Shown here piece by piece: positions 4,571-51,211 of a stretch of DNA of 64,000 nt. The translations under genes were made by a program, and so were the position numbers. The notes under the pieces are model-generated. The model worked only from the letters and a program-made list of their open reading frames with translations, made no database searches and was not told the origin of the DNA. Numbering within the stretch: position 1 is the stretch's first letter; every line of letters begins with the position of its first letter. Source of the stretch: Gammaproteobacteria bacterium (GTDB taxonomy: Bacteria; Pseudomonadota; Gammaproteobacteria; GCA-002705445; GCA-002716945); NCBI GenBank assembly GCA_038142325.1, contig JAYQJW010000002.1, forward strand, positions 619,328 to 683,327, read 5' to 3'.

Positions 4571-4630
4571 TATTGTCTCCGTTAAATTCTAATTCAGCCT
4601 AAAAATTTTAACACCTACATGAAATTTTGT

Positions 4631-7810: not shown

Positions 7811-10800
7811 TACCTATCCATTCTCTTGCATTATAAAACATCTTCATCCATGGAGAATTTTTCCATTTTTTTGGTGCCCAAGAAAAATTATCGATACATG
7901 CGAGTCTTTCTGGGTGAGGCATCATAATGTTAATTCTACCATCATTATTACAAAAACCCGTAGCACCATCAGTAGAACCATTGGGATTAAATGGATATTC
8001 TTCTGTATATTGACCAGATGGATTAACAAATCTCAGAGTTGTCTTTTTAATATCTTTTTTATTTTTAACAGATATTCTACCTTCTCCATGAGATACGATT
8101 ATTGGCAATGTAGAATTATGCATATCTTTGAAGAATATAGAATTCGATTTAGGAATTTTTACCAAAACCTGCCTTGCTTCAAATTGATTTGAATTATTAG
8201 AAATGAACTCTAGGCCAATGATTAGCTCCTGGTATTATAGATTTAAGATGAGATAACATTTGACAGCCATTACAAACGCCTAGTGAGAATTTATTTTTAT
8301 TATTGAAAAAAAGTGATAACGCATCATAAGCTTTGCGGTTATATATAATTTTATTTGCCCATCCTCGGCCTGCCCCTAAAACATCTCCGTATGAAAAACC
8401 ACCGCAAGCCACAAGGCCGTTATATTGATTTAAAATATCAGGGTGATTAATAATGTCATTTGTAGTTACATCAAAACACTCAAAGCCAGCAAGCATAAAC
8501 GCATTAGCCATTTCTTTGTGCCCATTAACTCCCTGCTCTCTAAATATTGCTATTTTTGGCTTTTTCTTTGTAGACAAATATCTTTTAGGCTTTAAATTAA
8601 TAGAAAACGTGAGTCTTGTTGTATCAGTCGTATTGACGTGTTTGTGTGATTGAATTTTAGCCTTATATTCTGATAAGGCTGTTTTTTTGTTATCTCGTTG
8701 AGACTGAATTAAATATGATAGCTCACTCCAGTATTTTCTAAGTGTACTTAAAAATTCATTGTAATTCATAGATTGAATGGATAGCTTAGGGTTTAAATCT
8801 TTTTTAGATTACCAATTTTATGCAGACATTGAGTAAGATTATATTTATCAACCAAAGATAAAAATGTTTTTTGATTTTGTTTTGAGATTGCAAAAACACC
8901 ACCAAGTTCCTCATTGAATAAAACTTTGATGATTTCAGAATTGTTTATTTCAAAATTATCTGTAATCACAGACATATTAGATGAAAAAGCCATTTCAATT
9001 AGACATGTAACTAAGCCTCCATCTGATCTATCATGATAAGCATTTAATATCTTTTTACTAAGAAGACTTTGAGTTAAATAAAAATAATTTATTAAATCAT
9101 TAATATCATGAATATTTGGTGTTTCATTTTTTGTAATATTTAGCGTTTGATTTAGTGCAGATCCGCCCATTCTATTTTTACCATGGCCCAGATCAATTAA
9201 ATAAAGATCTGAATTAACTTCAGACTGAGGTGTAACATAATCATTGACATCATCAATAGATGAGAATGCAGATAATATCAAACTTACTGGACTTTTAACT
9301 TCTTTATTGGCTTTATCTTTCCATTTTGTAGACATGGATAATGAATCTTTTCCAACAGGAATTATAATATTACATTTTTGACACAAGGATGAGAGTCGGT
9401 CAACAGATTGATATAAATTATGAAGCTCAGTCTTATCTGATGAATTAGCCATCCAATTAGCTGATAGTTTTATTTTATCCAATTGTTTGATTTGAACAGA
9501 TGCAAGATTTGTAATGATTTCGCCAAATGACATATCTATTGAATCTATTGAGCTAGTTGTAGCAATGCTTGGTCGCTCACCCATAGTCAGTACTTGACCA
9601 GATGATGAATTAATATCTGACTTTGTAATTGAAAAATTAGATACAGGAATTTGATTTGGTCCAATTAATTGATCTCTTGCAACTAAGCCAGTTACAGATC
9701 TATCGCCAATTGTAATAAGAAAGCCTTTGTCTGAAACAGATGGCAACTGAAGAACATTTTTTATACATGATCTTAATGCAGGATATTTATAATTTCCTAT
9801 ATTATTATCTTTGGAAGGTGTTGAAACTTTTATTTTATCAAGCGGGGGTTTACCAAGAAGGTATTTCATTGGTAAATCAATTGCTAAGTTTCCTCCATGA
9901 GAAACTTTCAATGATTTCTTTGTAGTTACGTGACCAATTAGATACTCTGGACAGTTCTCTCTTTCACAAATTTTTTTAAAGTCATAATAATTACTATCTT
10001 TGATAATTACTACGTATCTTTCTTGCGATTCATTACACCATATTTCTAGAGATGACATATTTTTTTCAGCAGTATGAACTTAGTCAATGTCTACAACTGC
10101 CCCCATATCAAAATCATTGACAATCTCTGGAACAGCATTACATAGTCCACCTGCTCCAATATCATGAATACTTATAATTGGATTTGTTTGTAAATAGGTG
10201 CACTTATTGATAACTTCTTGGCATCTCCTTTCTATTTCTGCGTTATCTCGTTGTACAGAAGCATAATCTAACTGTTCAGTGCTTGAACCAGACTGCATAG
10301 ATGATGCAGCGCCTCCACCGATGCCAATACGAAATGAGGGTCCACCTAGAATAACTATTACATCTCCCTGGCTCAGCTTTTTTTTACGTGTATATTTTTG
10401 GTTAATATAACCAATACCGCCAGCAATCATAATGGGTTTATGATATCCATTAATTTGATTCTTTATGCAATTTTCGTTTTGATCTTCATAGGTTCTAAAA
10501 TATCCAAAAATATTTGGTCTTCCAAACTCATTGTTATATCTGGCAGCTCCGATAGGAGCTTCTATTATTATTTCATGTGAAGATTTAATTCTACCTGGAT
10601 AACCAGTAGAATTTTTTTCCCATTGTTTTTCATGGTGAGGAATACTTAAATTAGATAATGTATAGCCACAAAAACCAACTTTAGGAGATGAACCTCTTCC
10701 TGTTGCGCCTTCATCTCTTATCTCTCCACCAGAACCTGTTGCTGCACCTGCATATGGTGATATAGCAGTAGGATGATTATGGGTTTCAGCTTTTATTATA

Positions 10801-11582
10801 TAGTTCTCTGGTGATTTGATTATTTTGTATTTGAATTGTTTATCTATAACTAATTCATTAATTTTTTTTCCTTTTATGATAGAAGAATTATCTTTATAAG
10901 CAGAAATAACATCTTTGTTAGACTTATATGTAGACTTAATCATTGAAAATAAAGTTTTATTTTTCTTCTTCCCATCAATAAAAAAAGTGGAGTTAAAAAT
11001 TTTATGTCTACAATGTTCTGAATTAATTTGTGAAAACATCATCAGCTCAACATCTGTTGGATCTCTTTTAAGTTTCAGGTAAACATTTTCTAAATATTTA
11101 ATTTCAGAGAGATTCATCGCTAAACCCATCTTATTATTTTCAGTTTCAATATTTTTTGTTGATATTTTTCTGAAATAATTTTTCTTAGGAAGAAATGTAT
11201 TATTTAGATATTTTCTAATTATATTTGATGATGATAAATATATTTCTGTCATCTGATCATATGGTGGCGAACATAGTCGAGAATCTTTGGATCTAATATA
11301 TAAATCTAGCTTTTCTATTTCATAATCAGAGAAACCTAAACATGAATCAAGAATATCTTTTGTTTTGCTAGACCATGGTGAATTTGTTCCTGACCTTGAA
11401 GCAATTGCAGAATACTTGTAATTAACACTAAATAGATTTTTAGTATATTTTGCATCAAGTATTCGAGATATTTTATCTATATTATTTGTATTTATTTTAT
11501 TAGTTGAACTTAGTGAAAAAAGGATATGATGCTTAGTTTTCTTATTGATTATTGTGCTATTTTTAATGAAGAAATAGTGCAT
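7803..11582 (-). CDS. purL: phosphoribosylformylglycinamidine synthase, large type (four fragments)
   Basis: [69 protein letters not shown]; start position uncertain. Confidence 0.93.
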
Positions 11583-11609
11583 TATGATGTATAGATATAG
11601 TAATACAAT

Positions 11610-11638
11610 TTGATTGTTTTTTCTAAATTATGTATAAA
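11610..11638 (+). promoter_or_regulatory. candidate sigma70 promoter of ssrA
   Basis: TTGATT-17 nt-TATAAA, 13 nt upstream of the tmRNA 5' end. Confidence 0.45.
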
Positions 11639-11651
11639 TAGTCTATCTCAA

Positions 11652-11995
11652 GGGGGCGACCGGCTTCGACGTGGGTTGCGATACCGGAGGTGCATATCGA
11701 GCTGATAGTAACTCGTTAAACTGCTGTAAAATATATAAACGCTGAAAATAAACCTTTAGCTCTAGCAGCCTAACTGCCGCTAGCCTCTCTCAGAGTAGGC
11801 TTATATGCTCAAACAGAGGTCATAATGATAAGATCGTAGTTCATAAGCTTGTTGGTGAACTATTAAATTTAAACAAGCTAGTTTTTATGTAGGTTGTCTT
11901 TAGCCAGCATAATTGCGAAATTTAATCAAAGACTATGCATGTAGTACCAATGGCTGAGTGCTCTCGGACGGGGGTTCGATTCCCCGCCTCCTCCA
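11652..11995 (+). ncRNA. ssrA: tmRNA
   Basis: 5' GGGGGCGACCGGCTTCGAC; tag frame 11741-11773 encodes AENKPLALAA*; 3' T-arm GGTTCGATTCC followed by acceptor strand and CCA. Confidence 0.95.
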
Positions 11996-25658: not shown

Positions 25659-26939
25659 CTATTTATCGAACTGCTCTTCTTCAGTACTACCTGTTAATGC
25701 TGTAACTGATGATGAGCCGCCAGTAATTACTTGAGTTACAGAATCAAAGTATCCTGTTCCTACCTCTCTTTGATGTTTAGTAGCGGTATATCCATCTTTC
25801 TCAGCAGCAAACTCTGCTTCTTGCAACTTAACATAGGCTGTCATCTGCTCTGCATTGTAGCCTTTTGATAACTCGAACATGCTATAGTTTAATGCATGGA
25901 ATCCGGCAAGGGTAATAAATTGAAACTTATAACCCATTGCCCCTAGCTCTTTTTGGAATTTAGCAATTTGCGCATCATCAAGATTCTTTTTCCAGTTAAA
26001 AGACGGCGAGCAGTTATATGCAAGCAGTTGTTCTGGATGCTCTTTTTTAAGTGCTTCAGCAAATTTTTTAGCAAAATCTAAATCAGGCACTCCTGTCTCA
26101 CACCACACTAAATCTGCATAAGGGGCATAAGCTAATCCTCTTGAGATTGCTTGATCAATACCATTTTTGACCCTATAAAAGCCCTCGGAGGTTCTCTCTC
26201 CGGTAGTAAATTCTCTATCTCTTTCATCTATATCGCTGGTTAAAAGATTTGCGGCCTCCGCATCAGTTCTGGCTAAAAGTACCGTTGGCGTATTATAAAT
26301 ATCAGCCGCTAATCTAGCTGCTGCTAATTTTTGAACTGCTTCTTGTGTAGGTACAAGCACCTTACCGCCCATGTGTCCACATTTTTTTGCAGAAGCTAGT
26401 TGATCTTCAAAATGCACACCTGCCGCACCTGCTTCAATCATTGCTTTCATTAACTCATGAGCATTAAGAACTCCGCCAAAGCCTGCTTCCGCGTCTGCAA
26501 CTATTGGTAACATATAGTCTACAGGTTCATTTCCTTCTGCTATGTTTAATTGATCTGCTCTTCGTAATGAGTTATTTATACGTTTTACAACCGCTGGAAC
26601 ACTATCTACGGGATACAGAGATTGATCTGGATACATTTGCATGCCTGTATTTGCATCACCCGCCACTTGCCATCCTGATAGATAAACAGCTCTTAGACCA
26701 GCCTTTGCCTGTTGCATTGCTTGGTTTCCTGTAAGTGCGCCAAGTGCATTTACAAAGTCGCTGTTGTTTATCTCGTTCCAGAGCTTTTCAGCACCCTGTT
26801 TGGCTAGACTATATTCAATTTCCACGCTACCGCTTAATTTAGCGACTTCTTCAGCTGTGTAATCACGTTTTACGTTTTTCCATCTTGGGTTCGAGTCCCA
26901 TTCTTTCTGTATATCTTTTGCAGATCTTACTTTGCTCAT
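25659..26939 (-). CDS. aceA: isocitrate lyase
   Basis: [11 protein letters not shown] signature, [18 protein letters not shown]. Confidence 0.98.
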
Positions 26940-27066
26940 TGTTACCTCATGGTCTAAAAAATAATTGGCTAGATGATACTACTTGTGAGATTAATTGACA
27001 AATTAAATAGCCCAATTATCATCATGATTTAAAAAAATATTTAATTAAAGAAATGTATAAGTCGAA

Positions 27067-28744: not shown

Positions 28745-31332
28745 TCAATTAGCTAATTTCTTCATTACATAGTTTAATATTCCATCACTCACAAAATATT
28801 CCCATTCTTTTGCAGTATCAATTCTAACTATAACTTCGAATATTTTATTAGAATCATTTTCTTGTATCTGAACAGTTTTAGAATCTTTGCTTATTGAGCT
28901 TATCGTGAATGATGACTTCATTGATAAACCAAGTGAATCAAAACTATCACCTTGAGCAAATTGCAAAGGCATGACGCCCATGCCCACAAGATTAGATCTA
29001 TGTATTCTCTCAAAGCTTTCAGCAATTACTGCTTTTACACCTAAAAGCTTTGTGCCTTTTGCAGCCCAGTCTCGTGAAGAACCGCAGCCATAATCTTTGC
29101 CAGCAAATATAATTAAATTAGTATTTGTTTTTTTATATTCCTCGGCGGCATCATAAATTGTCATCTCTTCATCATCAGGCAATAGTTTTGTAAAACCTCC
29201 TGTTTTTTCTGGGACTAATTTATTAGATAATCTTATATTTGCAAAGGTTCCTCTTTGCATAATTTTGTAATTACCTCTTCTAGAACCGTATGAATTAAAG
29301 TCTTTTACGTTTACTGAATTTTCTATAAGATGCTTGCCTGCTGGAGTGCTGTCTTTAAATGAACCAGCTGGCGATATGTGATCAGTGGTGACACTATCTC
29401 CCAAAATAACAAGAGGATATGCTAAATCTATTGCTGGTAGGGTATCTTGATTATCTTTTTCCTTTCCAAAAAATGGTGATGGCTGAATATAAGTTGATTT
29501 ATCATCCCAATCAAAATAATCTGAATCAGATGTAGGAATAAACTTCCAGTTATTATCACCATCGAACAAACTCGCATAGGAATCATTAAACATGTCTCCA
29601 TCAATTACCTTGTTTATTACATCATTAATTTCATTATTTGATGGCCATATATCCTTCAAATAGATATCTTTGCCATTTTGATCTTGTCCAAGAGGCGTTG
29701 TATTTATATCGACATTGATTTTACCAACTATTGAGTAGGCAACAACTAGCATTGGACTTGCAAGAAAATTCATTTTAATTTCTGGATGTATTCTTCCTTC
29801 GAAATTTCTATTTCCTGATAAAATAGAACTAACTACAAGATCTCTATCATTAATTTCCTTAACATACTTATCCTCTAAAGGTCCAGAGTTACCGATACAG
29901 GTTGTGCAACCATAACCAACTATATTAAACCCAAGTTTATCAAGAGATTCTTGAAGGTCTGCCTTTCTTAAATAGTTTTCAACAACTCTTGATCCTGGAG
30001 CCAAGGAAGTTTTAACCCAATCTTTTGTGGTTAATCCTTTTTCAACTGCATTTTTAGCTAATAACCCTGCACCAATAATTACGCTTGGGTTAGAAGTGTA
30101 TTTGTACAACTTGTAATTGCAGCAATTAAAATACTTCCATCATTAATTGAACCACTAGATACTTCAGATTTTTTAAGTTTTTTTATTTCCTTTTCTGAGA
30201 CAGCTTTTACATCTGATAGTAAAACTCGATCTTGTGGTCTTTTTGGTCCAGAGAGACATGCTTCAACTTTACTCATATCTAATGAGAGAGAATCTGTATA
30301 TTTGATATCATGCTGCTCATCTCTGAAAAAACCACATTTTTTACTGTATTCCTCGACAATCTGTAATTGGTTATCGTTTTTACCTGTCATTTTAAGATAA
30401 TCAATTGTTAGAGAATCTACTGGAAAGAAGCCGCATGTCGCACCATATTCAGGTGCCATATTAGAAATTGTACATCTGTCAGCAATGCTTAAGTTATCTA
30501 AACCGGATCCATAAAATTCAACAAATTTTCCAACAACATTTTTTTCTCTTAACATCTGAACTATGGTTAGAACAAGATCAGTTGCCGTTGTAGTCTGATT
30601 TAGCTTACCCGTTAATTCGAAACCAATAACTTCAGGTAATAGCATTGGAATTGGTTGTCCGAGCATAGCGGCTTCTGCTTCTATTCCACCAACCCCCCAT
30701 CCTAATACACCTAGGCCATTAACCATTGTGGTATGTGAATCGGTTCCAACAACGGTATCAGGATATAGACTTCCATCTTTTTCAAATACAACTTTAGCAA
30801 TATACTCAATATTAATTTGATGAATAATTCCGTTATTTGGTGGCACAATTCTCAAGTTTTTAAATGCCTGTTGGCCCCACTTTAAAAGTTTGTATCTTTC
30901 AGTATTTCTTTCATATTCTAGTTTAGTATTCAAGTCTTTAGAGTCTGATGATCCAAAGTGATCTACCATCACAGAATGATCTATGACCAAATCTGTTTGA
31001 CATTGTGGATTTACAGCATCTGTTTTTGATGCATCTAGAGATTTCATAGCATCTCTCATTGAAGCTAAATCTACTACAGCAGGTACACCTGTGAAGTCCT
31101 GCATGATAACTCTACTAGGATAAAATGTAATTTCAGTATCTTTATCTGCTTCTCCGTTCCAACTTATAAACTTTTCTATAATTGAATTAAAGTTAGAGTT
31201 GTCAGATTCATTTCTTAAATAATTCTCCATTAAAACTCTGAGAGAATAAGGTAAGTGATTGACTTCAAAGTTATTTATGTTGAATGTTTGATAAGTATTA
31301 TTATTTATAGAAAGTTCTGATTTTTCTGACAT
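28745..31332 (-). CDS. acnA: aconitate hydratase AcnA (frameshift near 30100)
   Basis: QDFTGVPAVVDLA, GTDSHT, AAITSCTN, GYGCTTCIGNSG, TTDHISPAG, GSSRDWAAKG. Confidence 0.96.
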
Positions 31333-31389: not shown

Positions 31390-31827
31390 CTATGAATTAC
31401 TTGGGAGGTAGTTTTTTTTTTGAACACTCTCGATATACATGCCTAGCGAATCTTTATTATTAGGGTTACTTTTTCTTACAACTACATCTTGTCCATCTTT
31501 TTTAAGACCATTATATTTTCTCAAAAACTTATTTAATTCAATACTTTTTTTAATACGATATAATCTTGGTTCTTGGTTTTGCTCTTTTATCAAAATCAAG
31601 ACACTATCTTGATTTGTATAAGTATTTAACACATAGAATTTATCAGGTAATTTATCTGTTGTCGCATAACCCTCATTATTTCTGATATTTTCATAAACCA
31701 GTATAAAAAGTACAGATATGCTTAGGGCAATGACTATTTTTGTGCCGTAAGGTCTGCCATTAAGAAAATTATGAATTAAAAAAATATAAAGAAATAATGT
31801 AATTATTAATAAAAAATATAACAGCAT
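31390..31827 (-). CDS. hypothetical membrane-anchored protein, third gene of the MotA/ExbB-like module
   Basis: two N-terminal TM helices, then a soluble domain (GYATTDKLP...EPRLYRI). Confidence 0.65.
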   Translation of the reverse strand: MLLYFLLIITLFLYIFLIHNFLNGRPYGTKIVIALSISVLFILVYENIRNNEGYATTDKLPDKFYVLNTYTNQDSVLILIKEQNQEPRLYRIKKSIELNKFLRKYNGLKKDGQDVVVRKSNPNNKDSLGMYIESVQKKNYLPSNS

Positions 31828-31829
31828 AA

Positions 31830-32436
31830 TTAAAATCCTTTGAGATTATATGGCGTTAAAACTTTTTTTGATTTACCTCCTGAGGAATACTCGCCTTTTT
31901 CATCTAAGTAGAATCTTGTGACAGTAACTTCTGTGTCTTTTTTTCTAAAATAATATTATTAGCATAGACTAGTTTTAAAGTTGGATTAACTTTTTCAATA
32001 ATAACTTTCACTTCTACAGGGTTGGTACTTTTATGCTCATAAAGATATAAATTCAGTATATATTCGCCAGGAATGATTCCTCTTAAGTAACGACTTCTCT
32101 ATTAATTGGATAAATAATTTCCTCACCATCAATTGTGACAACATCATTAATTATACCCTGATCGTCTCTATCTAAATGTAACCATCCAGCATCTTTTTTT
32201 AAGTATGAAACTGTTTCACCATTAGGATCCTGAACCCAAATATCAACATCATCGGGTAGACTATCTTTCCAGTCAACCGTCACAATATATTCAGCTTTCA
32301 TATTAACATTGCCTATTTTCGAGATAGGATTGATAAAAAGAATTGTTATAAAAAATAAAAAAGTAAAACCAAGCAGAGTATTAAAAAGTAAATCAGTGAA
32401 AGGTTCTGTTTTAGTTCTAGTTTTTCTTCTCATCAT
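31830..32436 (-). CDS. single-TM protein with MotB/ExbD-like Asp helix and an uncharacterised soluble domain (frameshifted)
   Basis: EPFTDLLFNTLLGF TM segment; VDW...DDVDIWVQDPNG, LDRDD, continuing in another frame RGIIPGEYILNLY. Confidence 0.7.
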
Positions 32437-33049
32437 GGCACGAATTTATTATTTCGCTAATGAAAGCATTAATTTTATTTTCAAAATAGTTATTTTGAAT
32501 GGTCAAAAGGATTGATCCTATTAAACCTGATAACGTTGTATATAAGGCTACTTTCATGCCGCCACTCATGCTCAATAAAAGATTATTCATTTTTGACAAA
32601 TTAATCTCATCTATAGTTGATAGTGAACTTAGCATTAATATGAATCCAATCACTGTACCTACAATACCTAGCTTTAATAAGAGATCAGAAATAAAAAAAC
32701 CATCGTCTACTATTTCATAAAATTTAGATTTAAGTTCATCTTGTTTTGTAATATCTTTACCTGAACTTTGAAGAAAATTATTGGTAATATCAAAAAAGAT
32801 ATTATTTTGTATTTTTGTATTAGGATGGATAAGTTTTCTAAATGCATCTCTAAGTATATATAGAAGTAAACCTCAACGCGCTAGATAAAATATAAAAATG
32901 ATAAGTATATGTGTGGAAATATAACTTATGTCATCACGAAATATACCTGAGATTAATTCATATGATTCAAGTACATAAGCAAAAATAATAATTATAGAAA
33001 CGAAGTAAATCCAGTAGATAAAAATATTATCTATTTTCTGATCATTCAT
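32417..33049 (-). CDS. MotA/TolQ/ExbB proton-channel family protein (5' part broken)
   Basis: LGIVGTVIGFILML and GMKVALYTTLSGLI TM motifs; ATG at 33049 abuts the fumC stop. Confidence 0.78.
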
Positions 33050-34430
33050 TTAAATTAATTTTTTAGGATCTAGAATTTTTAATAGATCACCCTTTGTTAA
33101 ATTAGTCATTTTTTCAGCTATGTCAAAAATAGAACTATTAGTTTTATAAGCCTCTTTAACAATTTTAGATGCTAGATCATACCCAATAACCTGATTAAGT
33201 TTTGTAGCTATGATCGGATTTTTAAACAGATTCTCTTTAACAATATCCTCATTAACAACAAATGAATCTATTAGTTCAATCATACTAAAAGTACTATTGA
33301 TCATAAGATAGAGGGATTCGATGATATTATGAGCAATCACCGGGAGCATAGTATTTAACTGAAAATTACCACTGCTTGTTGCTTGCATTATTGTTACATG
33401 GTTTCCATTTACCTGAGTAGATGCCATCATGACTGATTCAGAGATAACAGGGTTTATCTTACCAGGCATAATGCTACTGCCTGGTTGAAGTGCTTTTAAA
33501 GTTATTTCTGACAAACCGGATATAGGACCACTATTCATCCATCGTATATCATTAGCAATTTTAGATAAAGTAGATGCGTATCTTGTAATAGCAGAACTCA
33601 AAGTAAAATATATGATTTTGTGAACTCATCATTTCGCCTTTAATATGTAATGGTTTGAATTTGAGTTTAAGTTCACTGTAGATTTTATTTAACTCAGAAC
33701 AGACATTCTTGCTAAATTGTTTTGGTGCATTTATTCCTGTTCCAATTGCAGTTCCACCTATCGGAAGATAAGAGATTTCCTCACAAGATAAATCAATTTG
33801 TGACTGTGCTGCTCTTACCTGCTCTTCCCACACATTCAATTCTTGCTCAAAAGATATAGGTACAGCATCCATTAAATGCGTTCTTCCAGATTTAATAATG
33901 TTAGAGAGAGATTTTGATTTTTTATGTAATGAGTCACAAAGAAAATTCATAGATAAAGATAAGCTGTTGCTCATTGTCAAACTAGATATATTAATTGTTG
34001 TTGGAATTACATCATTAGAGCTTTGAGACATATTTACATCGTCATTTGGATGAATTTCCTTTTTATATTTTCTTTTAGCAAGATTTGATACAACCTCATT
34101 CATATTCATATTAGTACTAGTTCCTGACCCAGTTTGGAATATATCAACAGGAAAATGATCCATATAATCCAGAGTATTTTTAGCAATATCTTTTGTAATC
34201 AAGGATATGTTAGATGCTTTATTTTTTGGTATGACACCACATTTTAAATTCGCATTAGCACATGCGCTCTTAAGGTTAGCAAGACTTTGTATGAATGCAG
34301 GATCAAATGAGATACCGCTGATTTTAAAATTGTCTATTGCTCGTTGAGTTTGCGCGCCATATAAAGCATCTTTTGGCACCTTAACTTTACCTAGAGAGTC
34401 TGATTCGATTCTATAATTATTTTTTTTCAT
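33050..34430 (-). CDS. fumC: class II fumarate hydratase (frameshift near 33600)
   Basis: YGAQTQRA, FQTGSGTSTNMN, QSSND, GRTHLMDA, GSSIMPGKINP. Confidence 0.93.
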
Positions 34431-37541: not shown

Positions 37542-38662
37542 TTATATTCCTTTTTTTAAACTTTCCTGAATAAATTCATCTAAATTTCCGTCTAAGACTG
37601 CTTGAGTATTTCCAGTCTCATGACCAGTTCTTAAATCTTTGATTCTTGAGTCATCTAATACATAAGATCTTATTTGGTTACCCCAACTGATATCTGATTT
37701 TTCTGATTCAACCTGGTTTTTAATTTCATTTTTTTTATTGAGTTCGTAAGCATACAGTTTAGCACGTAACTGTTTCATAGCAGATTCTTTATTTTTATGT
37801 TGCGATCTATCATTTTGACACTGAACAACGATTTTAGTTGGCATATGTGTAATTCTTACAGCAGATTCAGTTGTGTTGACATGCTGTCCTCCTGCTCCGC
37901 TTGCTCTATAAACATCTATTCTTAGGTCCGATGGATTTATTTCAACTTCAAATGAATCATCAATTTGTGGGTAAATGAATACAGATGCAAATGATGTATG
38001 CCTACGATTACCTGAATCAAAAGGAGATTTCCTCACAAGTCTATGTACACCGGTTTCTGTCCTTAACCAACCATAAGCGTAATTACCGTCCACTTTTATT
38101 GTAATGCTTTTGTAGCCAGCAACTTCACCCTCACTGGCTTCAGTTATTTCTGATTTAAATGAATGTTTTTCTATCCACTTCAAATACATTCTCATAATCA
38201 TTGCTACCCAATCCTGAGCCTCTGTTCCGCCAGATCCAGATTGAATATCTATGTACGCATCAGCATCATCATTTTCTCCCTTGAAGAGTTGTGTAAATGA
38301 AAGATTATTAAGCTCGTCTGATGTTGATTTATACAGCTCTAGCATTTCACTTAATAACTTCTGATTATCATTATTTGGCTCATCTAGTATAGATTCTAGA
38401 GTATAAGACAAGAGATCTATATCGGATTGGATTGTGTCTACACTTTTTTTAAGCGATGTATAATTCTTAAGTTGTTTATTAAGATTTTTAGTTTGTTTTA
38501 TGTCACTCCAAACATTAGGATCATTAAGTTTATTTGTTACGTCATCAATTTTTGAACTAAGGGCTTTATAGTCAAACTAACCCCCTAAGCTCATCAAGTT
38601 TAAGCTTATCTTCTTTAATCTTTCTCAATTATCTCATTAGATTGTTCGATTAAATTTGTCAT
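37542..38662 (-). CDS. prfB: peptide chain release factor 2 with programmed +1 frameshift
   Basis: SPF motif, GAGGQHVN; ATG at 38662; internal SD AGGGGG and TGA-C at 38571-38586, after which the frame is open into the 289 aa ORF. Confidence 0.95.
38571..38586 (-). promoter_or_regulatory. RF2 programmed ribosomal frameshift cassette
   Basis: AGGGGG TTA GTT TGA C. Confidence 0.85.
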
Positions 38663-39327
38663 ACTGATACATCATTATAGTAATTTAATTTTTCAGTCCA
38701 CATCAATTTATACTTCGATAGTAGCTCTGAGTCAGCCTCAATAATCTCATGATCATATGTGCCCTTGTAAGCAACAAAAATTTTAGCACTTTCTATTTTT
38801 GTATCAAACATCTTATCATGCGCTATTGCATATGCAGCAAGTTGCTGAAAATGTTCATCAATTAAAAATGCACTTTTTTTACGAAATGAAGATTTATAAT
38901 CAATAATTGTTAGCTTGCCGTCGATTTCAGCTAACAAATCTAACCTACCAGCATATTTTAAGCCTTCGTGAATTATTGCTTCAGAAGAAATAAATTTATC
39001 GATAGTTGGGAATATGTTATCTATTATTGTTTTCGAGAGCTTGGCTGCAATTTGTGAATTTCTATTTTCATTTACATTAATAGATTTATTAGTTACATAC
39101 CTATCTAGAATTTCGTGCATAAGATTTCCAATTTCGAACGAATCTGCTTGCGAATTTGAAAACACATCGTTTTGATTTAGCCGTGATAATCTTATGATTG
39201 ATGTAACGCTGGGAACTAGTTTTTCTTTGATTTTATAGTAACGAAAATTATTCTGCTTAATTACATCATATTCATTATATTCAAATGAAGGTGAATATAA
39301 ATAACTATTATTTTTCAAGAACATCAA
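38659..39327 (-). CDS. PD-(D/E)XK nuclease family protein (RecB/MGME1/phage exonuclease-like)
   Basis: PSVTSI, GNLMHE, SE, YAGRLD, IIDYKS, QLAAY motifs. Confidence 0.85.
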   Translation of the reverse strand: MMFLKNNSYLYSPSFEYNEYDVIKQNNFRYYKIKEKLVPSVTSIIRLSRLNQNDVFSNSQADSFEIGNLMHEILDRYVTNKSINVNENRNSQIAAKLSKTIIDNIFPTIDKFISSEAIIHEGLKYAGRLDLLAEIDGKLTIIDYKSSFRKKSAFLIDEHFQQLAAYAIAHDKMFDTKIESAKIFVAYKGTYDHEIIEADSELLSKYKLMWTEKLNYYNDVSV

Positions 39328-39646
39328 TAATTTTTTGTATATCTTTTTTGATTAAAGATAATACTGGATTCTGTTTAGATGAATTACTAGATATATTATC
39401 TAATTTTTGCTTTGCACCCTCAACTGTGAACCCTTGTGTAGAAATCAAATTATGAATTTTTAAGATTGTAAGAATATCATTCTGCGTATAATATCTTCTG
39501 TTGCCTGTTCTTTTTAAAGGAGTCAGCGTATCAAATTCTTTTTCCCAATATCTTAATATATGTGTTTTTATATTAGTGATTTTAGATACTTCCCCAATTG
39601 AAAAATATCTTTTGTTAGGTATCTCTATCGAATTAATCTGATCCAT
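39308..39646 (-). CDS. MerR-family HTH regulator (ihfA-associated)
   Basis: [13 protein letters not shown]...[10 protein letters not shown]...GNRRYY; conserved position after ihfA; start approximate. Confidence 0.9.
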
Positions 39647-39929
39647 CATAAGCTTCAAGTTTAGATTTCAATTTTAGTCCAGATTTGAAAGTGACAACTC
39701 TTCTTGACGATATCGTTACCTCCTCACCAGTTTTAGGATTTCTTCCTGGTCTAGGAGATTTATCTCTTAAAATAAAATTACCAAAACCGGATAACTTTAT
39801 ATCATTTCCCTCTTCGAGAGATTTTTTTATTTGCTCAAAAAAACACTCAATCAGTTCCTTTGCTTCTCTTTTATTGAGGCCAACTTCATTGTGAACCATT
39901 TCTACAAGAGAGTCTTTGGTAATTGTCAT
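39633..39929 (-). CDS. ihfA: integration host factor alpha
   Basis: [22 protein letters not shown]. Confidence 0.96.
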
Positions 39930-41908
39930 TGTGCTTCTTGAATATTCAACTTATATGTTTTTTTGATATCTTCGGTTATATTGTTAATCGCTTTATTAAT
40001 ATCCTCGTCACTTAATGTTTTATCAACTGATTGAAGACAAAGCTCTAAAGTAATATATCTATTTAATTGTAGTTTATCTTTATCTATAAATATATCTTTA
40101 ATTCTTATATTTTTCATATATTTATAGCTTTTATTTTTTATATTTCTAGTCATATATGCAATATCTTCATCTAAATTACATTCTAGTGTTATATCTTTAT
40201 ATACGGCAGGATATTGAGATATTTTAGAGTAAGACATCTTGTGTAATGAGGGTAATAAGCTTTTGTTGACTTCAAAAGCAAATACACTGTTCTTTATATC
40301 AAAATCATGTCTACATTCTTGTTTCACCAGACCACATTCTCCAACTTTTTTGTCATTCAATATGATAGCCAAACAGTTTTTGTTATCAAAATAGAGTGAA
40401 TCTTTACACACAATAAAATCAGATCCCGGGATTAGAGACAGTATATCTGACTTAAGATCTCCCAAACTCACTTCACTTTGATTACTTGCAAGATCAATAG
40501 GAGATGTTAATCCATATAGAACACCAGATAATAGATTTGTCTCTTTGATTTTATTTTTATCCTTTATGTAGATTTTCCCTGACTCAAAAAACCTCATACT
40601 TTTGTGTTTTCGATTATAGTTATAGCTAATATTCTTCAATAGACCTGGAAGAAGAGAATCGCGCATTACAGATTTATCACTTGAGATTGGGTTACGAAGT
40701 ATCATATTGTTTTTTTCATCAGTATAACTCTTGGGGACAAAGCTATAGTTAATGACTTCTTTGTATCCAAGTATAACTAAAATGTCATTATAATTTTTTT
40801 GCTCAACATTAGATGATGATGTTGCCTCAATGGGTAATTCAGGAATATTATCATATCCAATAAGTCTACATACCTCTTCAACTAGGTCATAATTTGAGGA
40901 AACATCAAATCGATAGCTTGGAACATAAACCATATCTGATTTAAATATAAATCCTAGGTTATTTAATATAGATTTAATTTTTTTTTTTTTTTAGTTCAAT
41001 ACCTAAAATTCTATTGAATAAACTATAGTCGCACTTAAAGGACTTAGATTTTGTCAGCGGACTTTTGTGACTTATTTTATTAATTTTGCAATGATCTGTT
41101 GATATTTCTTTACTTAAAAGAAAATGAATTCTTGATAGAGCTATTTCAGGTAAATTATAATCCACCCCCCTTTCAAATCGATATGATGAATCTGTTTGAA
41201 TTCTATACTTTCTTGAAAGAGACCTAACAACATCAGGAATAAAAAATGCGCTTTCAAAAAGAATGTTTTTAGTATCTTTATTAACAGATGATAATTTACT
41301 TCCTATTACTCCTGGTAGCGCATGAACGATATCCATTTCATCAATTATCACGGGTGTTCCCTTTTTTATTTCGTATTCTTTATTGTTTATACCGATAAAT
41401 TTATATTTTTTTTTGCTAACTACAACATTTAATTTTCCATTTATCTTATCTAAGTCAAAAGCATGAGTTGGCTGCCCCAGTTCAATCATTACATAATTTG
41501 AAATATCAACTATAAGGTTGATAGGTGAAATATCACATTTAATGAGTCGATCTTTAATAAACTTTGGCGTTTTAGTTTGAGCGCTCAGATTATCTAACAA
41601 CATATATCTATATTCCAAACAGATTTCTGAAGAAACTTTGTTAACGTAAATATTATCTTTTTTAAATGTGTGTTTGCTAAGAGAGGTAAATTGACTTTTT
41701 TATTTTTAAATGCAGCTATATCTCTAGATGTTCCATAAATTGATAAACAGTCACCCCTATTAGGTGTGAATTCGATATCAATAATATAATCTTTACCAAC
41801 TTTTTTTACGTCATCTACTTCAAGACCTAGCTGTGTAAGTAGATTTTCAATGTTCTCTTTTTTATGGATAGAAACATAATCGTTAATCCAATTCTTGCTA
41901 AACTTCAT
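39926..41908 (-). CDS. pheT: phenylalanine--tRNA ligase beta subunit (three fragments; lacks B2 domain)
   Basis: [39 protein letters not shown]...DLVEEV.RL.GYD, NPIS, C-terminal anticodon-binding domain. Confidence 0.92.
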
Positions 41909-42894
41909 GTCTCTCTCAGATTCTCAAATTGTTCTAGGAAATTAATATCATTATCAAAAAATACACGTAAATCTGGAATTTTATAAGCTAGCATTGCAAA
42001 TCTCTCGATACCTAGCCCAAAAGCAAAACCAGAGAAATGATTTGGGTTAATATTCACATTTTTTAAAACATTAGGGTGAATCATTCCACATCCAAGAACC
42101 TCAAGCCATTTACCATTAAACATTATATCCATCTCGGCTGACGGCTCTGTAAATGGAAAATAGGAAGGTCTAAATCTAGTTTTAATATTATTTGAATCAA
42201 AAAACTTATGAATAAAATCATTCAAAACCCACTTTAAATTTCTGAAATTTATTTCTTTATCAACACAGAGACCCTCAATTTGATGAAACATTGGTGAATG
42301 TGTTGGGTCTGAATCACAACGATACACACGGCCAGGGGCTAACACTCTGAGAGGTGCAGTAGATTTTTCCATTGCATGAATTTGAACAGAAGATGTATGT
42401 GTCCTCAAAAGATGATTACTGTCAAAATAAAAAGTATCATGCATGTCTCTAGCAGGGTGATTATCAGCTATATTAAGATACTCAAAGTTATATCGTTCTG
42501 TTTCTATTTCAGGACCATCATGTGTCTCAAAACCTAAACTTGAAAAAATTTTTTCTATTCTTTTAATTACAAGTGAAATTGGATGATGGGCACCGAAATG
42601 ATGGTGCTTGGCAGGGGTATCTAAATCTAATTGACTGATTATTTCATTTTTTGTTTTAAGCTCGCTGACTTTCTCATTAATTATCTCATTAAGTATATTC
42701 TTTGTCTGATTAAGCTCAGCTCCATATTCTTTTCGCTTATCAGGATCAATATCTTTAAGTGACGAAAATAGATTTGTCAGATAACCTTTTTTTCCAATAA
42801 ACTTTGATTTTATTTGTAGTAAGTCATGCTCTTTATTGCATGTTTGTAGCTCTTTTTTTAATAAGGCCGCTAAATCAGTATGATTTATTTTCAC
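41905..42894 (-). CDS. pheS: phenylalanine--tRNA ligase alpha subunit
   Basis: [40 protein letters not shown]. Confidence 0.98.
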
Positions 42895-44042: not shown

Positions 44043-45925
44043 TTAATTAATTTTATCATTAAGTGATTCTATAAAGTCATCAAGTTTAATAGATTTTTGA
44101 TCAGCGCTCTCTCTGTCCCTGACAGTGATAAGCTCTTCATCTAATTCTTTATCACCTATAATAAGCATGTATGGTACCCTAGTCATTGCATGATTTCTAA
44201 TTTTATATCCAATCTTTTCATTACTTAGGTCGCATTCAGATCTAATACCTCTCTCAGTGAGTTTATTAGTAATCATTTCAGCATAATCACTATGTTTATC
44301 AGTTATATTTAAAACCATCACTTGTATTGGAGATAGCCATATAGGTAAATTCCTGAATAATGCTCGAGAAGAATTCCTACAAAACGCTCAAGTGAGCCTA
44401 AAATAGCCCTATGTATCATGACAGGCGTTGTTTTATTGCCATCTTTGTCAATATATGTTGCGTCTAGTCTACCAGGCATAGAAAAGTCTAATTGGATTGT
44501 TCCGAGTTGCCATACTCTTGATAGGGAATCTTTAAGAGAAAAATCTATTTTTGGTCCATAAAATGCCCCATCTCCAGGATTCTCTGAATAATCTATGTCA
44601 TTAGCTTTAAGAGCAAGCTTTAAACTATCTTCTGCAGTGTCCCAAATTTCATCAGATCCAACTCTTTTTTCAGGTCGCGTAGAAAGTTCAATTTTAAGTT
44701 CATTAAATCCAAATTTATTATAAATATTCTTTATATCATTGATTAATAGTGATATTTCGTTTTTTATTTGGTCGGGAGTACAAAATATATGTGCATCATC
44801 TTGTGTAAATGCTCTAATTCTAAGAAGGCCGTGCAAAGTTCCTGATGGTTCATTTCTGTGTACAAAACCAAACTCCGCAAGTTTAAGGGGTAAATCTTTA
44901 TAACTTCTTAGACCATGATTGAAGACCTGGACATGTCCTGGACAGCTCATTGGCTTAATGGCAAATTCTTTTTTTTCAGACCCTACATCAAATATCAGTT
45001 CTCCAAATTTATCAAGATGTCCTGATTTTTTCCAAAGCGATTTATCTAGAATTTGTGGTGTATTAATAATTTTATATTTATTTAATCTTAGATACTTTGT
45101 CATAAAATCTTTAATAATATTAAATATAGTCCATCCTTTATCGTGCCAAAACACCATTCCTGGTGACTCCTCCTGAAAATGAAATAAATCTAGTTTTTTT
45201 CCAAGTAATCTGTGATCACTTTTTTCAGCTTCTTCAATTGATTTAAGATATGAATCTAGAGAATTTTGATCTGGCCATGCGGTTCCATAAATTCTAGTTA
45301 AAGCTTGATTTGATGAATCTCCTTTCCAATAAGAGCCAGAAATTTTCATTAACTTGAAGGCTTTTACATGTTTTGTATTTGTTAGATGAGGTCCTCTACA
45401 CATATCAATGTATTCCTCATGATGATAAATAGCAATAATCTCACCTTCAGGAATTTCTTTAAGTAATTCAACTTTATATGGCTCTTTCCTTTCTTCAAAT
45501 ATGGATATTGCATCTTCTTTAGAAATAACCTCGCGTTTGATTGCATAATTTTTCTTTGCTAATTTTCTCATCCTATTTTCAATTATGGGAAGATCTTTAT
45601 CTGAAAGAGGTTCGTCTGATAGAATTTCGTAATAAAAACCATTTTCTATTACAGGCCCAATTACCATTTTTACATCAGGATAAAGTTGTTTTATTGCATG
45701 GCCAAATATATGAGCGCATGAGTGCCTTAAAATATCTAAACCATCAGCATCAGCAGTTGACAACAACTCTATTGTTGAGCCATCTGTTATCTGTTCAGAA
45801 AGATCAGATAGCCTGTCATTAATCTTTGCAGCTACAATATTTTTTCCGAAGTTTTTAGAGACAATATCTTCTAAAATATCACCTTCGTTGACTTCATATT
45901 CTTTATTGTTAATAGTTGTAATCAT
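44043..45925 (-). CDS. thrS: threonine--tRNA ligase (frameshift near 44340)
   Basis: RHSCAH, DMCRGPH, DHR.LGK, KPMSCPGH, FTQDDAH, HRAILGSLERF. Confidence 0.96.
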
Positions 45926-45939
45926 AATTATTTAAAATA

Positions 45940-48141: not shown

Positions 48142-49323
48142 TTGAAACTATCAAACCGTATTAAATTAATAAAGCCATCATCGACAATGGCTCTTACTTC
48201 CAAAGCAAATGAACTTAAGGCTAATGGTGAAGATATTATAGTTTTAACAGTAGGTGAACCAGATTTTGATACACCTAATTATATAAAAGATGGAGCAAAA
48301 AAAGCTATTGATGGAGGGATGACAAAATACACATCAGTTGATGGAACTCTTGAGCTAAAGAATGCTATCATCAAAAAATTTAAAAATGAAAATAATCTTA
48401 ATTACAACCTAGACCAAATTATCGTTTCTGCAGGATGCAAGCAATCTATATTCAATCTCCTTCAAGTAATTATAGATGAAGGTGATGAGGTGATTATTCC
48501 ACAACCCTATTGGGTATCATACTCAGATATGGTTATTTATTCAGGAGGTAAGCCAATATTACTTGAGACTAATTATGAAAATAATTTTTCTATTGATATT
48601 AATCTTTTTGAATCATTAATCTCAGATCGAACTAAACTCTTTATGATCAATAGCCCTAATAATCCTAGCGGGAAATATTATGATTCTGCTTTATTAAAAA
48701 AATTATCTGAGGTGCTTAAAAAATATGAAGATATATTTATATCCTCTGATGATATTTATGAACACATTCATTGGGGAGATGAAAAATTTCATAATATTTT
48801 AAATGTCTGTCCAGAACTAAATGATAGAGTAATAATTCTTAATGGAGTATCTAAAGCATATTCTATGACTGGTTGGAGGATAGGTTATGCTGCTGGTAAT
48901 AAAGAAATAATTAAAAAAATGAAGACTCTTCAATCGCAAAGTACATCATGTGCTTCTTCTGTATCTCAAGCTGCAGCAACAACTGCATTAAATAGTGTTT
49001 GTACTGAATTACCAATGATGAATAAAGAATATAAAGAAAGACATGATTTTGTTATCTCTGAATTAAACCAGATTAATGATGTTGAATGTAAACCGACTGA
49101 TGGTACGTTTTATGTATTTCCATCATTTAAAAAATATATTGAAAAAAATAATCATATCTCAAATGATACAGAGTTAGCATTGTATTTACTGGAAAAAGCA
49201 AAAGTTGCTGTTGTGCCCGGGAGTGCATTTGGCATTGAAGGCCATTTAAGAATTTCTATTGCAATTGACATGAAGTCGCTCGAAGAAGCTATGAAACGTC
49301 TGAAAAGTATTCTTAATTCATAA
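48142..49323 (+). CDS. PLP-dependent aminotransferase class I/II (aspartate aminotransferase-like)
   Basis: GEPDFDTP, NSPNNPSG, SDDIYE, NGVSKAYSMTGWRIG. Confidence 0.92.
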   Translation: MKLSNRIKLIKPSSTMALTSKANELKANGEDIIVLTVGEPDFDTPNYIKDGAKKAIDGGMTKYTSVDGTLELKNAIIKKFKNENNLNYNLDQIIVSAGCKQSIFNLLQVIIDEGDEVIIPQPYWVSYSDMVIYSGGKPILLETNYENNFSIDINLFESLISDRTKLFMINSPNNPSGKYYDSALLKKLSEVLKKYEDIFISSDDIYEHIHWGDEKFHNILNVCPELNDRVIILNGVSKAYSMTGWRIGYAAGNKEIIKKMKTLQSQSTSCASSVSQAAATTALNSVCTELPMMNKEYKERHDFVISELNQINDVECKPTDGTFYVFPSFKKYIEKNNHISNDTELALYLLEKAKVAVVPGSAFGIEGHLRISIAIDMKSLEEAMKRLKSILNS

Positions 49324-51127
49324 CTTAGCAGCTCTTTTTCTTTCATGTGGATCTAGATATTTTTTTCTTAACCTCAAGTTCATAGGTGTGACTTCTAATA
49401 CTTCATCGTCTTCAATATATGACATCATTTGCTCCAGAGACATTTTGCGCGGCGGTACCAGTTTTACTGCTTCATCAGATCCCGAAGCACGAATATTTGT
49501 TAATTGTTTACCTTTGAGTATATTGATTTCAAGATCATTCGGTCTGTTATGTTCACCAACAATCATTCCTTGATATACTCTAGTCTGTGGCTCAATAAAC
49601 ATTGTTCCTCGATCTTGTAGGTTGAATATTGCATAAGCTACAGAATTTCCAGCTGAATTTGATATTAGAACGCCATTTCTTCTAGATTCAACATCCCCAT
49701 TATATCTCTCATATGAATCAAAAAGTCTATTAATCACTCCAGTACCTCTAGTTTCAGTTAAAAATTGACTTTGGTAACCTATCAAAGATCTTGATGGACA
49801 TTTAAAAATTAAACGTGTTTTTCCTGATACATTAGACATGTCTATCATAATGGCTCTTCTTTTATTCATACTATCAATGACTGAACTAGTGTAATTATCA
49901 TCTACATCAATTATTACTTCTTCAATAGGTTCTAATTTCTGACCATCCTTATCTATTTTAAATACAACTTTAGGTCTTGAAACTGTCAGTTCGAATCCCT
50001 CTCTTCTCATTGTTTCTACAAGAACTCCCAACTGAAGCTCACTCTCTACCGCCGATTTCAAATGAATCTTTTTTATCATTCTCATTAAAGGAAATTGCTA
50101 CATTTGATTCTGATTCTGCTAACAATCTATCTCTTATTATTGTAGATGTAACTTTCTTACCTTCTAATCCAGAAATAGGTGAATCGTTAACAGTTATGTT
50201 AATAGACATTGTCGGAGGATCAATTGGAGTTGATTTAATGGGTATATCATTAAGCTCGTCACAAATTGTGTCAGATACAGATGTTTTTGCTAGACCAGCA
50301 ACACAAATGATATCTCCTGCATTGACATTGTCTACAGGCACTCTATTTGTACCATGATATTTGAATAGCTTGGTTAATCTTCCAGTCTCTATGGTTTCAG
50401 ATGAGAGATTTATTGCTTTTACACTATCATTAACTTTTGCTGAACCCTGCTCTACTTTTCCGATAAGGCATCGACCTAAATATTTATCTGAATCAAGTAG
50501 AGTTGCTAGCATTGCAAAAGGTTTATCAATATCAGTATTTGGAGATTCTACATGATCAATAATCATATCTAACATCTCATGAAGATTATTTTTTTTATTA
50601 TCTAAGTTAGATGTACACCATCCATCTCTACCCGAGGCGTACAAGATAGGAAAATCTAATTGTTCATCACTTGCATTAAGTGAAACGAATAAGTCAAAAA
50701 CTTCATCGATCACGCTATCTACTCGGCTGTCAGCTTTATCAACTTTATTAACCACAACTATTGGTTTCAAGCCTTGAGATAATGCTTTTGATAGTACAAA
50801 TTTTGTTTGAGGCATAGCGCCCTCAGAAGCATCAACTAATAGTATTACTCCATTTGTCATACTGAGAATTCTCTCTACTTCCCCTCCAAAATCAGCATGA
50901 CCAGGAGTATCTATGATATTAATTCTTGTATTATTCCATATGATAGATGCTGGCTTGGCTAGAATTGTAATGCCACGTTCTTTTTCCAAAACGCCAGAAT
51001 CCATTACACGTTCACTTGATAGCTTGTTATCCCTAAAAATTCCTGATTGAACCATAATAGAATCTATAAGTGTAGTTTTCCCATGATCGACGTGGGCTAT
51101 AATTGCGATATTTCTAACTTGTTCCAT
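49318..51127 (-). CDS. typA: ribosome-associated GTPase TypA/BipA (frameshift near 50045)
   Basis: RNIAIIAHVDHGKTTL, ERGITIL, DTPGHADFGGEVER, MRREGFEL, KQLTNIRASG. Confidence 0.95.
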
Positions 51128-51211
51128 TATTGTGTTCTGACAAAATATTTTGTGAACTATACTACACAAAAATTATTAAATCCTGAAAATTTTGACAATG
51201 AAATGAAGTTA

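Follow-up and report, generated by a model that had tools for sequence, protein, structure and literature searches.

A conserved, phage-borne three-gene module that joins a MotA/ExbB-type membrane protein to a TerD-like partner

Introduction

Does a locus that joins a MotA/ExbB-type membrane protein to two partners of no named family encode an ion-driven complex of its own, or a variant of a system that is already described? The question is raised by three packed genes, termed G1, G2 and G3, on the minus strand of contig JAYQJW010000002.1 from a Gammaproteobacteria bacterium. They occupy positions 31390-33049 (1.66 kb) of the window, that is, of the whole stretch of 64,000 nucleotides analysed here, to which all gene coordinates refer, and their surroundings are AT-rich (about 25-33% G+C). 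An earlier note, made from the sequence alone, had described three tightly packed or overlapping genes here as a distinct and poorly described ion-motor module. The genes were found on the minus strand where that note had placed them, and all the motifs it quoted (LGIVGTVIGF, GMKVALYTTLSGL, FTDLLFNTLLGF, DDVDIWVQDPNG, LDRDD and PGEY) are present in the trio.

Members of the MotA/ExbB superfamily are the motors behind flagella and gliding, import across the outer membrane, the integrity of the envelope and defence against phages, and each newly understood member has brought a new way to deliver energy beyond the cytoplasmic membrane. The solved 5:2 ion-driven motors are MotAB, ExbBD, TolQR, GldLM and ZorAB. 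The trio studied here keeps the channel core and the coupling Asp of these motors, and has its B-subunit domain and its third partner swapped for unfamiliar ones. It is widespread, conserved, phage-borne and uncharacterised, a member of a known superfamily with a new B-subunit domain and a third subunit. It probably encodes a self-contained ion-driven complex of the MotAB/ExbBD type at the inner membrane and periplasm, with a new type of B subunit and a dedicated third subunit.

Conservation of the trio in bacterial genomes

A genome scan matched 220 stretches, 97 of which encode a relative, and the best 80 of these 97 were used as loci. They come from low-GC marine gammaproteobacterial metagenome-assembled and single-cell genomes, from other Gamma-, Alpha- and Betaproteobacteria, and from three cultured Salinisphaera strains. 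The low-GC marine carriers are presumably 'SAR86-like', an unconfirmed label of our own. Each locus was searched with profiles of the G1, G2 and G3 families. G1 was adjacent to G2 in 75 of the 78 loci with room upstream, and it is also in place in the other three (L036, L038 and L068), in which the called G2 start is over-extended. G3 was adjacent in all 73 loci with room downstream. Where both flanks could be read, all three genes were present at 68 of 71 loci by the automatic rule and at 71 of 71 after inspection.

The genes are also tightly spaced. The commonest arrangement is a 4-base overlap, seen between G1 and G2 in 28 of 76 cases and between G2 and G3 in 30 of 77. In the window itself, G2 starts 20 bases ahead of the G1 stop, and 3 bases lie between the G2 stop and the G3 start. 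Judged by sequence similarity, the trio stands far above chance, with 690 relatives of G2 (its first piece of 117 amino acids (aa) as query), 215 of G3 and 822 of G1 (among 1327 candidates) at E ≤ 1e-3.

The flanks of the trio differ from lineage to lineage. A fumarase/purB family member was found in 33 loci and acnA in 28, solely within the low-GC marine group, and in 33 low-GC marine gammaproteobacterial loci the trio stands at one fixed place between housekeeping genes. In other lineages the neighbours include thioredoxin-like proteins, HlyD/OEP efflux parts, Usp, IspA, BolA and glycine-cleavage genes, among others. Since the flanks change between lineages while the trio stays, it is an autonomous module, and its place between fumC and acnA reflects chance gene order in one lineage and no functional link to the tricarboxylic acid cycle. 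The fumC stop codon TAA (33050-33052) directly abuts the G1 ATG. A promoter and terminator scan returned 0 terminators and 20 promoter-like sites against 25.1 expected by chance, and is uninformative on operon structure. The trio may be co-transcribed with fumC, as the earlier note had suggested, but fumC and acnA flank it in one lineage only.

The trio extends to further genomes. Using tblastn, G2 relatives were identified on seven Azospirillum replicons, and one Azospirillum brasilense replicon carries the G1, G2 and G3 families in order, with 89.9, 117.6 and 32.2 bits. The conservation of the triad, for which the earlier note had suggested a survey, was found in this way at every readable locus, on the Azospirillum replicon and in the rhizobial phages described below.

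A same-strand gene of about 270 aa (cluster 17) lies downstream of G3 in 8 alpha-/betaproteobacterial and Salinisphaera-type loci and directly adjoins it in four. Examples are L067:7185-7979, L068:5106-5906, L072, L074 and L079. The family gave a weak DUF3108-like Pfam match (E 2.3e-4) and may be a lineage-specific fourth component.

The trio in rhizobial phages

G2 relatives were found in 29 phage records, all of them Rhizobium or Sinorhizobium phages (28 with a phage protein as query), and the trio was identified in four groups of these phages. The gene order is the same in RHph_I1_9 (gp146/147/148), RHph_I1_18 (122/123/124) and RHph_N3_19 (065/066/067). In the temperate phage 16-3 the corresponding genes are p038, p040 and p042, with two small genes interposed. 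The profile search covered 17 phage proteins, and its weakest matches are tentative: G2-like proteins scored 95-203 bits, G1-like proteins 36.4, 31.1, 15.6 and 13.8 bits, and G3-like proteins 34.4, 27.5, 26.8 and 17.4 bits. gp146 of RHph_I1_9 also matched the Pfam family PF01618 at 22.6 bits, just below the cut-off. The phage forms of G1 are 113-148 aa long, which makes them essentially helices alone. All of these are annotated as hypothetical, and the PHROGs search gave one match, to a family of unknown function (E 0.0095). These results show that the module has passed between bacteria and phages as a whole.

Two genes upstream of the phage trio, RHph_I1_9 gp144 (L081:2471-3034) encodes a DUF7338 membrane protein (E 8e-46), which was not seen beside the bacterial trios.

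G1, the channel subunit

The first gene was assigned to the MotA/TolQ/ExbB family in the earlier note, and the Pfam search agrees. The 151-aa part of G1 that lies past an in-frame TGA matched PF01618 (MotA_ExbB) with an E-value of 1.6e-10 and 41.2 bits, against a cut-off of 22.9. Among the matches listed, all 120 G1 relatives carry PF01618. Their source names are few and generic: 'MotA/TolQ/ExbB proton channel family protein', 'flagellar motor component MotA' and 'hypothetical protein'. Hydropathy of the orthologue in L011, the closest of the compared loci, gave four hydrophobic segments at about 9-27, 43-61, 123-141 and 167-185, with a loop of some 60 residues between the second and the third. 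Across 39 diverse members, the invariant residues include D40, G128, G131, T132, G135, G164, A168, L169, T171, T172 and G175. The polar residues of the GTxxG and TT motifs in the last two MotA/ExbB helices have a role in the ion path.

When the G1 profile was run against PDB sequences at E ≤ 1, two matches were obtained: 8vvn_C, a 696-aa MotA/TolQ/ExbB-domain protein (E 0.0017, profile positions 45-218), and the MotA chain 8gqy_A (E 0.014). The GTxIG and ALxTTLxG motifs of G1 align with both chains, and no ExbB or TolQ chain was matched at that threshold. The best named models were those of ZorA. In NCBIfam they reached 22-25 bits (best 25.1) against cut-offs of 100-700, and in PADLOC about 13-27 bits; in both cases the channel core alone was covered. 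On the sequence evidence, G1 is a member of PF01618 and is best described as a minimal MotA/ZorA-like channel subunit.

G2, the Asp-bearing partner

Full-length G2 relatives are 200-202 aa long, unnamed or called 'hypothetical', and without a Pfam domain. At E ≤ 1e-3, an exhaustive profile search identified 1754 representatives of clusters formed at 50% identity; at 1e-10 the number was 1104. The single helix with an Asp that the earlier note had seen in this protein is a family feature, as Asp14 in the helix is kept in 103 of 106 diverse relatives; W55, D62, D64, D90, G93 and E113 are found in all 106. The N-terminus has 5 K/R in its first 15 residues and is followed by one hydrophobic segment at 16-34 by hydropathy. 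Given the basic N-terminus and the positive-inside rule, the N-terminus would lie in the cytoplasm and the remainder of the protein outside it, as in ExbD, TolR and MotB.

An AlphaFold2 model of G2 was built from the alignment of 106 sequences and reached a predicted local distance difference test (pLDDT) score of 92.7. It replaced an earlier model from 21 close relatives, which was too poor to use (pLDDT 56). The model has a helix at 10-33 and an all-beta domain at 49-185, with about 14 linker residues between helix and sandwich. The top PDB matches found by Foldseek, 2qng (E 8.2e-5), 2qz7 (3.1e-4), 3ibz (3.3e-3) and 2kxt (1.6e-2), all belong to the TerD family, with template-modelling (TM) scores of 0.47-0.52 by target. 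TerD-like proteins also recur among the viral fold matches of G2. The listed PDB fold matches of the model include no ExbD or TolR chain. Calcium binding by TerD is given in the title of PDB entry 2kxt, and the likeness to TerD together with the fully conserved acidic residues makes it likely that the G2 sandwich binds a divalent cation.

Sequence searches yielded faint signals. Four full-length relatives matched no Pfam family even at E ≤ 10, and the PDB sequence search with the G2 profile returned nothing usable. In a Pfam scan of the 106 members, 70 families were seen, and TerD is not among the 25 most frequent, which were examined. The OmpA-like family PF00691 is likewise not among these 25 and gave no match for the window pieces or the four relatives. 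ExbD (PF02472) appeared faintly in 2 of 106 members (best E 0.005), and in none of the window pieces or four full-length relatives. With the TerD-like model, this upholds the view of the earlier note that the second gene is not an ordinary ExbD, TolR or MotB. That note had also likened the soluble part to YfaP/DUF2135 folds, a likeness of which the sequences show faint signs. DUF2135 (PF09906) was detected in 4 of 106 members (best E 6.2e-4; none for the window protein or P0003) and PPC in 8 of 106. The automatic name of one of the family's Atlas clusters is YfaP/DUF2135. All these signals are below the curated cut-offs, and the window protein and its close relatives give none. A DvDlwv.dP.G-like stretch of G2 aligns with protease C-terminal domains at E 0.6-0.9. 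Going by the structural model, TerD is a better description of the soluble domain than YfaP/DUF2135, and G2 combines a B-subunit-like anchor with a different, TerD-like periplasmic domain.

Sixteen longer proteins of the G2 family were scanned for fusions, and one, P0172 (411 aa), joins a MotA_ExbB region (160-230) to a G2 region (267-406). The two genes may be naturally fused here, or their frames may have been merged artificially in a high-GC contig. Its N-terminal part resembles mis-framed read-through, and the protein was not counted.

G3, the third membrane protein

The 215 relatives of G3 are nearly all 142 aa long, unnamed and without a Pfam domain. The protein was described in the earlier note as a two-helix membrane protein of no known family. 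Hydropathy gave two N-terminal hydrophobic segments with a short basic loop between them, and there was no family match in Pfam or NCBIfam and no PDB sequence match, in accordance with that description. The helices are followed by a GYP/GWP...LP..F.L motif, PR.Y.L.Y, an invariant Gly and a terminal LPxK. Across 42 sequences the invariant residues are G53, P61, R88 and G112, and no His is invariant. By the positive-inside rule, the C-terminal domain of about 95 residues is predicted to be periplasmic, on the same side as the G2 sandwich. Look-alikes of G3 in the Atlas are mostly viral clusters. A predicted complex of G2 34-201 with G3 46-142 scored 0.10, below the mark, which counts neither for nor against binding.

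Relation to known systems

Defining features of each of the Ton, Tol, flagellar-stator and Zorya systems were looked for in the trio and were not found, and the trio is therefore outside these systems. With ExbB-ExbD-TonB and TolQ-TolR-TolA it shares an arrangement of three adjacent, translationally coupled inner-membrane genes: an A subunit of PF01618, a B subunit with a basic cytoplasmic N-terminus and an Asp helix, and a third membrane-anchored protein that faces the periplasm. However, G1 appears to have four helices and to be MotA/ZorA-like, whereas the Ton and Tol A subunits have three. G2 carries a TerD-like beta-sandwich in place of the ExbD/TolR fold, and G3 has two helices, no spacer and no TonB/TolA C-terminal domain. 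G3 is not TonB- or TolA-like, as it has neither a conserved His nor an extended spacer. No outer-membrane partner is linked to the trio.

MotAB and PomAB share with the trio the PF01618 core with the aligned GTxIG and ALxTTLxG motifs, the four hydrophobic segments of the A subunit and the Asp-bearing B helix. They differ in that G1 is without the large cytoplasmic torque loop (its loop has about 60 residues, and the phage forms have next to none), that G2 is without a plug or an OmpA-like peptidoglycan-binding domain, and that no flagellar genes are nearby. ZorAB of Zorya provides the best named models and the best solved chain for G1, and it is also found on mobile elements. The scores are however about 25 bits against cut-offs of 100-700, and G1, at 210 aa, is without the long ZorA tail. 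G2 lacks the peptidoglycan-binding ZorB domain, and no effectors of the ZorC/D/E type are linked. As the earlier note had reported, no tonB, tolA, flagellar or Zorya gene is adjacent, and none was detected among the 81 open reading frames (ORFs) scanned in the window.

The partner domain has relatives of its own. G2 shares with the TerD family (2qng, 2qz7, 3ibz, 2kxt) the fold of its soluble domain and conserved acidic residues on the beta-sandwich, but close G2 relatives have no sequence-level match to any Pfam family. TerD proteins are soluble, cytoplasmic and not helix-anchored, and they are not known to be linked to MotA-like genes. DUF2135/YfaP and PPC are echoed in the G2 family by faint sequence signals, though none of these reaches a curated cut-off, and YfaP occurs in another gene context, without a MotA-like partner.

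Searches of Pfam, NCBIfam, PADLOC, PHROGs, PDB sequences and the literature matched the trio to no characterised system, which bears out the earlier description of a distinct, poorly described system. In the literature search, no paper was found in which a partner of the TerD, DUF2135 or YfaP type is linked to a MotA/ExbB-type protein. In the parts available, one study describes a 'generic ion transporter' class that is heterogeneous and has many DUFs appended (PMC12505986), and another describes vWA-type transducers and proposes new non-TonB transducer families beside the motors (PMC12204202). Those parts describe neither such a trio nor a TerD/DUF2135-type partner.

Proposed mechanism

The proposal that the trio forms an ion-driven complex starts from the family of G1, the conserved Asp of G2, the fold class of its soluble domain, the strict linkage of three genes with overlapping frames, and the spread to phages. 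As in the solved 5:2 motors, G1 would form a ring around a central dimer of G2. Within this ring, the coupling ion would bind to the Asp in the G2 helix and leave it again, and passage of the ion via the Asp would drive relative movement of the subunits. The TerD-like sandwich, probably with a bound divalent cation, would replace the ExbD/TolR fold or the OmpA-like peptidoglycan anchor. G3 may sit with its two helices in the membrane beside G1, with its domain of about 95 residues in the periplasm. Work would then be delivered in the membrane or the membrane-proximal periplasm via G2, G3 or both. The periplasmic side or the membrane is suggested because G1, above all in its phage forms of 113-148 aa, offers no cytoplasmic output surface, and the target would probably be in or near the inner membrane and not the outer membrane, because the G2 linker is short and the G3 domain small. 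As to the role, our guess is an envelope-level task that is useful to free-living proteobacteria and, during infection, to phages.

A bolder form of the proposal is that the trio represents an unrecognised class of compact ion-driven rotary motor, with a cation-binding TerD-like sandwich on its axle and a third subunit of no known family, which unrelated rhizobial phages bring into the cells they infect. This is possible, and it is put forward tentatively, with the balance somewhat on the side of doubt. If the trio is a motor, its job is general enough to keep it at one place in the core genome of an abundant low-GC marine lineage of Gammaproteobacteria and for rhizobial phages to carry it. 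A general, unexplored envelope function is suggested by the size of the family (1754 G2 clusters), its retention in streamlined marine genomes and its sharing with phages. Azospirillum brasilense, Salinisphaera species and phage 16-3 with its rhizobial host are cultured and tractable carriers, so the question is directly testable.

Several points weigh against an ion-driven complex. The likeness of G1 to solved motors is weak (21.6 and 18.6 bits), and G2 has no Pfam family at E ≤ 10, its resemblance to TerD being at the fold level alone (TM about 0.5). No G3 relative of known function was detectable, and G3 is proposed as a subunit on linkage alone. In phage 16-3, the G1-like (13.8 bits) and G3-like (17.4 bits) matches are weak. 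Assembly, the 5:2 stoichiometry, ion flux, cation binding, the topology of G3 and the biological role are all putative. The 4 lesions in the 1.66 kb of the window trio also exceed the 0.37 expected there from the rest of the window, whose other 62 kb have at least 14 (Poisson P ~6e-4), and the module may be inactive in this organism.

Alternative explanations

The trio might instead be a gated ion channel or sensor that exerts no force, in which the TerD-like domain senses periplasmic divalent cations and gates a proton or sodium path through G1 and G2; cells would use the complex for ion homeostasis and phages to alter the membrane potential. The TerD-family fold with D62, D64, D90 and E113 in 106 of 106 relatives would suit such a sensor, as would a very small G1 with no cytoplasmic interface (113-148 aa in phages) and a compact complex with about 14 linker residues from helix to sandwich. 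However, a third subunit that is conserved and has a periplasmic domain of its own would be more usual in a transducer, and the characterised members of the MotA/ExbB superfamily are all known to use ion flow for mechanical work. A gated channel or sensor appears unlikely. Less likely than this is a divergent Ton/Tol system in which G3, as a short analogue of TonB/TolA, would pull on an outer-membrane partner. The order of A subunit, B subunit and transducer, the topology and the tight coupling do resemble exbB-exbD-tonB and tolQ-tolR-tolA, and non-TonB transducer families beside such motors have recently been proposed in the available part of one study (PMC12204202). Yet G3, with its two hydrophobic segments, lacks an invariant His and any spacer of the proline-rich or long helical kind, its roughly 95 periplasmic residues are too short to span the periplasm, and it matches no TonB/TolA family. 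G2 is without the ExbD/TolR fold, the nearest solved chains of G1 are ZorA-like and MotA with no ExbB/TolQ chain at E ≤ 1, and the loci have no linked gene for an outer-membrane receptor, Pal or TolB, all of which makes this explanation quite improbable. Also less likely than a gated channel, and very improbable in our estimate, is a role in anti-phage defence or superinfection exclusion, with the trio as a minimal Zorya-like sensor of cells and phages. It draws on the ZorA likeness of G1, which gives its best named similarities (25.1 bits in NCBIfam, about 25 bits in PADLOC, and 8vvn_C), on the presence of the trio in phages including the temperate 16-3, and on the largely viral look-alikes of G3 in the Atlas. 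But the ZorA scores are far under their cut-offs (25 against 500 bits) and cover the channel core alone, and G1 has 210 aa and no long tail. G2 and G3 match no PADLOC model, no effector gene is linked in the examined loci, where the neighbours are housekeeping or lineage-specific, and the 33 low-GC marine loci hold the trio at a fixed housekeeping position and not in a variable island.

Whatever its role elsewhere, the trio could be a decaying pseudogene cluster without function in this organism. This would account for the excess of lesions described above, which consists of one nonsense codon and three frameshifts; the nonsense change and one of the indels are outside homopolymers, and P0001, from a near-identical genome, has the same A-run frameshift. 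On the other side, essential genes of the window are split in the same way, which points to sequence errors. The lesions counted outside the trio are a minimum, the trio has A/T runs of at least 7 at 2.3 times the density found elsewhere, and the rest of its coding sequence has 92-100% protein identity to intact relatives. At least 12 housekeeping genes of the window are split, namely ribD, glyA, soxB, purL (3 pieces), pntA, mnmA, acnA, fumC, pheT (3 pieces), thrS, typA and miaA. This points to window-wide indel errors behind the split genes, with genome decay less likely, and because the window is full of such genes, sequence error is the simplest explanation. Intact orthologues of the trio genes are plentiful and close relatives are unbroken. 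Decay of the trio in this organism appears unlikely.

Gene layout and reading frames in the window

The lesions were defined by alignment to L011, which has 92% DNA identity to the trio of the window. Against this reference, the trio carries one in-frame TGA in G1, two frameshifts in G2 and one in G3 (Table 1). The interruption of G1 involves no indel. Gly is found at the site in P0390 and in 4 of the 5 closest aligned loci, and L011 has GGA. Recoding of the TGA, as Trp or Gly, was rejected because TGA terminates 4 of 30 well-supported genes of the window at the expected C-terminus, as an ordinary stop, and relatives carry GGA/Gly. G2 is read in the frames 32086-32436, 31907-32098 and 31833-31955. 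P0001, which is 100% identical upstream, reads through 32085/32086 and is also out of frame at the A-run 31938-31944.

Table 1. Genes of the trio, their lesions relative to L011, and the flanking genes, in window coordinates
Feature	Coordinates	Strand	Description
G1	32417-33049	minus	MotA/TolQ/ExbB-family membrane protein; 210 codons in a single frame; 94% identical to intact 210-aa P0390
In-frame TGA in G1	32873-32875	minus	GGA/Gly in relatives
G2	31830-32436	minus	B-subunit-like: basic N-terminus, Asp helix (FTDLLFN), short linker, TerD-like beta-sandwich (model); three frames
G2 first frameshift	32085-32086	minus	One base fewer than L011, outside a homopolymer; frame change also in tblastn
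G2 second frameshift	31938-31944	minus	A-run, A7 vs A8 in L011; DNA alignment and tblastn
G3	31390-31827	minus	Two hydrophobic helices and conserved C-terminal part; C-terminus shifted in window
G3 frameshift	31412-31421	minus	A-run, A10 vs A8 in L011; last codons altered, relatives end ...KLPPK
fumC (flank, outside module)	33050-34430	minus	Class II fumarate hydratase/aspartase family; split in two by frameshift
acnA (flank, outside module)	28745-31332	minus	Split in two by frameshift; start 57 bases past G3 stop as read

Adjacent pieces of the split housekeeping genes match consecutive parts of one family model. Example stretches with split genes are 1694-2805, 3303-4588, 4634-6325, 8200-11627, 39929-41923, 44046-45931, 49321-51172 and 59425-60356.

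Other features of the window

The isocitrate lyase gene (25662-26978, minus strand) has a G+C content of 0.40-0.44, against 0.26-0.33 in its surroundings, and its protein is 96% identical to the orthologue in L009, where neighbouring proteins are 60-87% identical. Either unusually strong constraint or recent transfer would explain this. The prfB frame (37545-38576, minus strand) matched the release factor 2 model only from position 16 onward, a late start that would presumably fit the programmed +1 frameshift for which the beginning of prfB is well known. A full-length tmRNA gene is located at 11652-11995 on the plus strand (Rfam RF00023, 169.8 bits). An ORF at 38662-39351 on the minus strand gave a weak match to a Cas4-type nuclease (TIGR00372, E 6.1e-8, 32.7 bits against a cut-off of 65), and it adjoins a MerR/HspR-like regulator fragment and ihfA.

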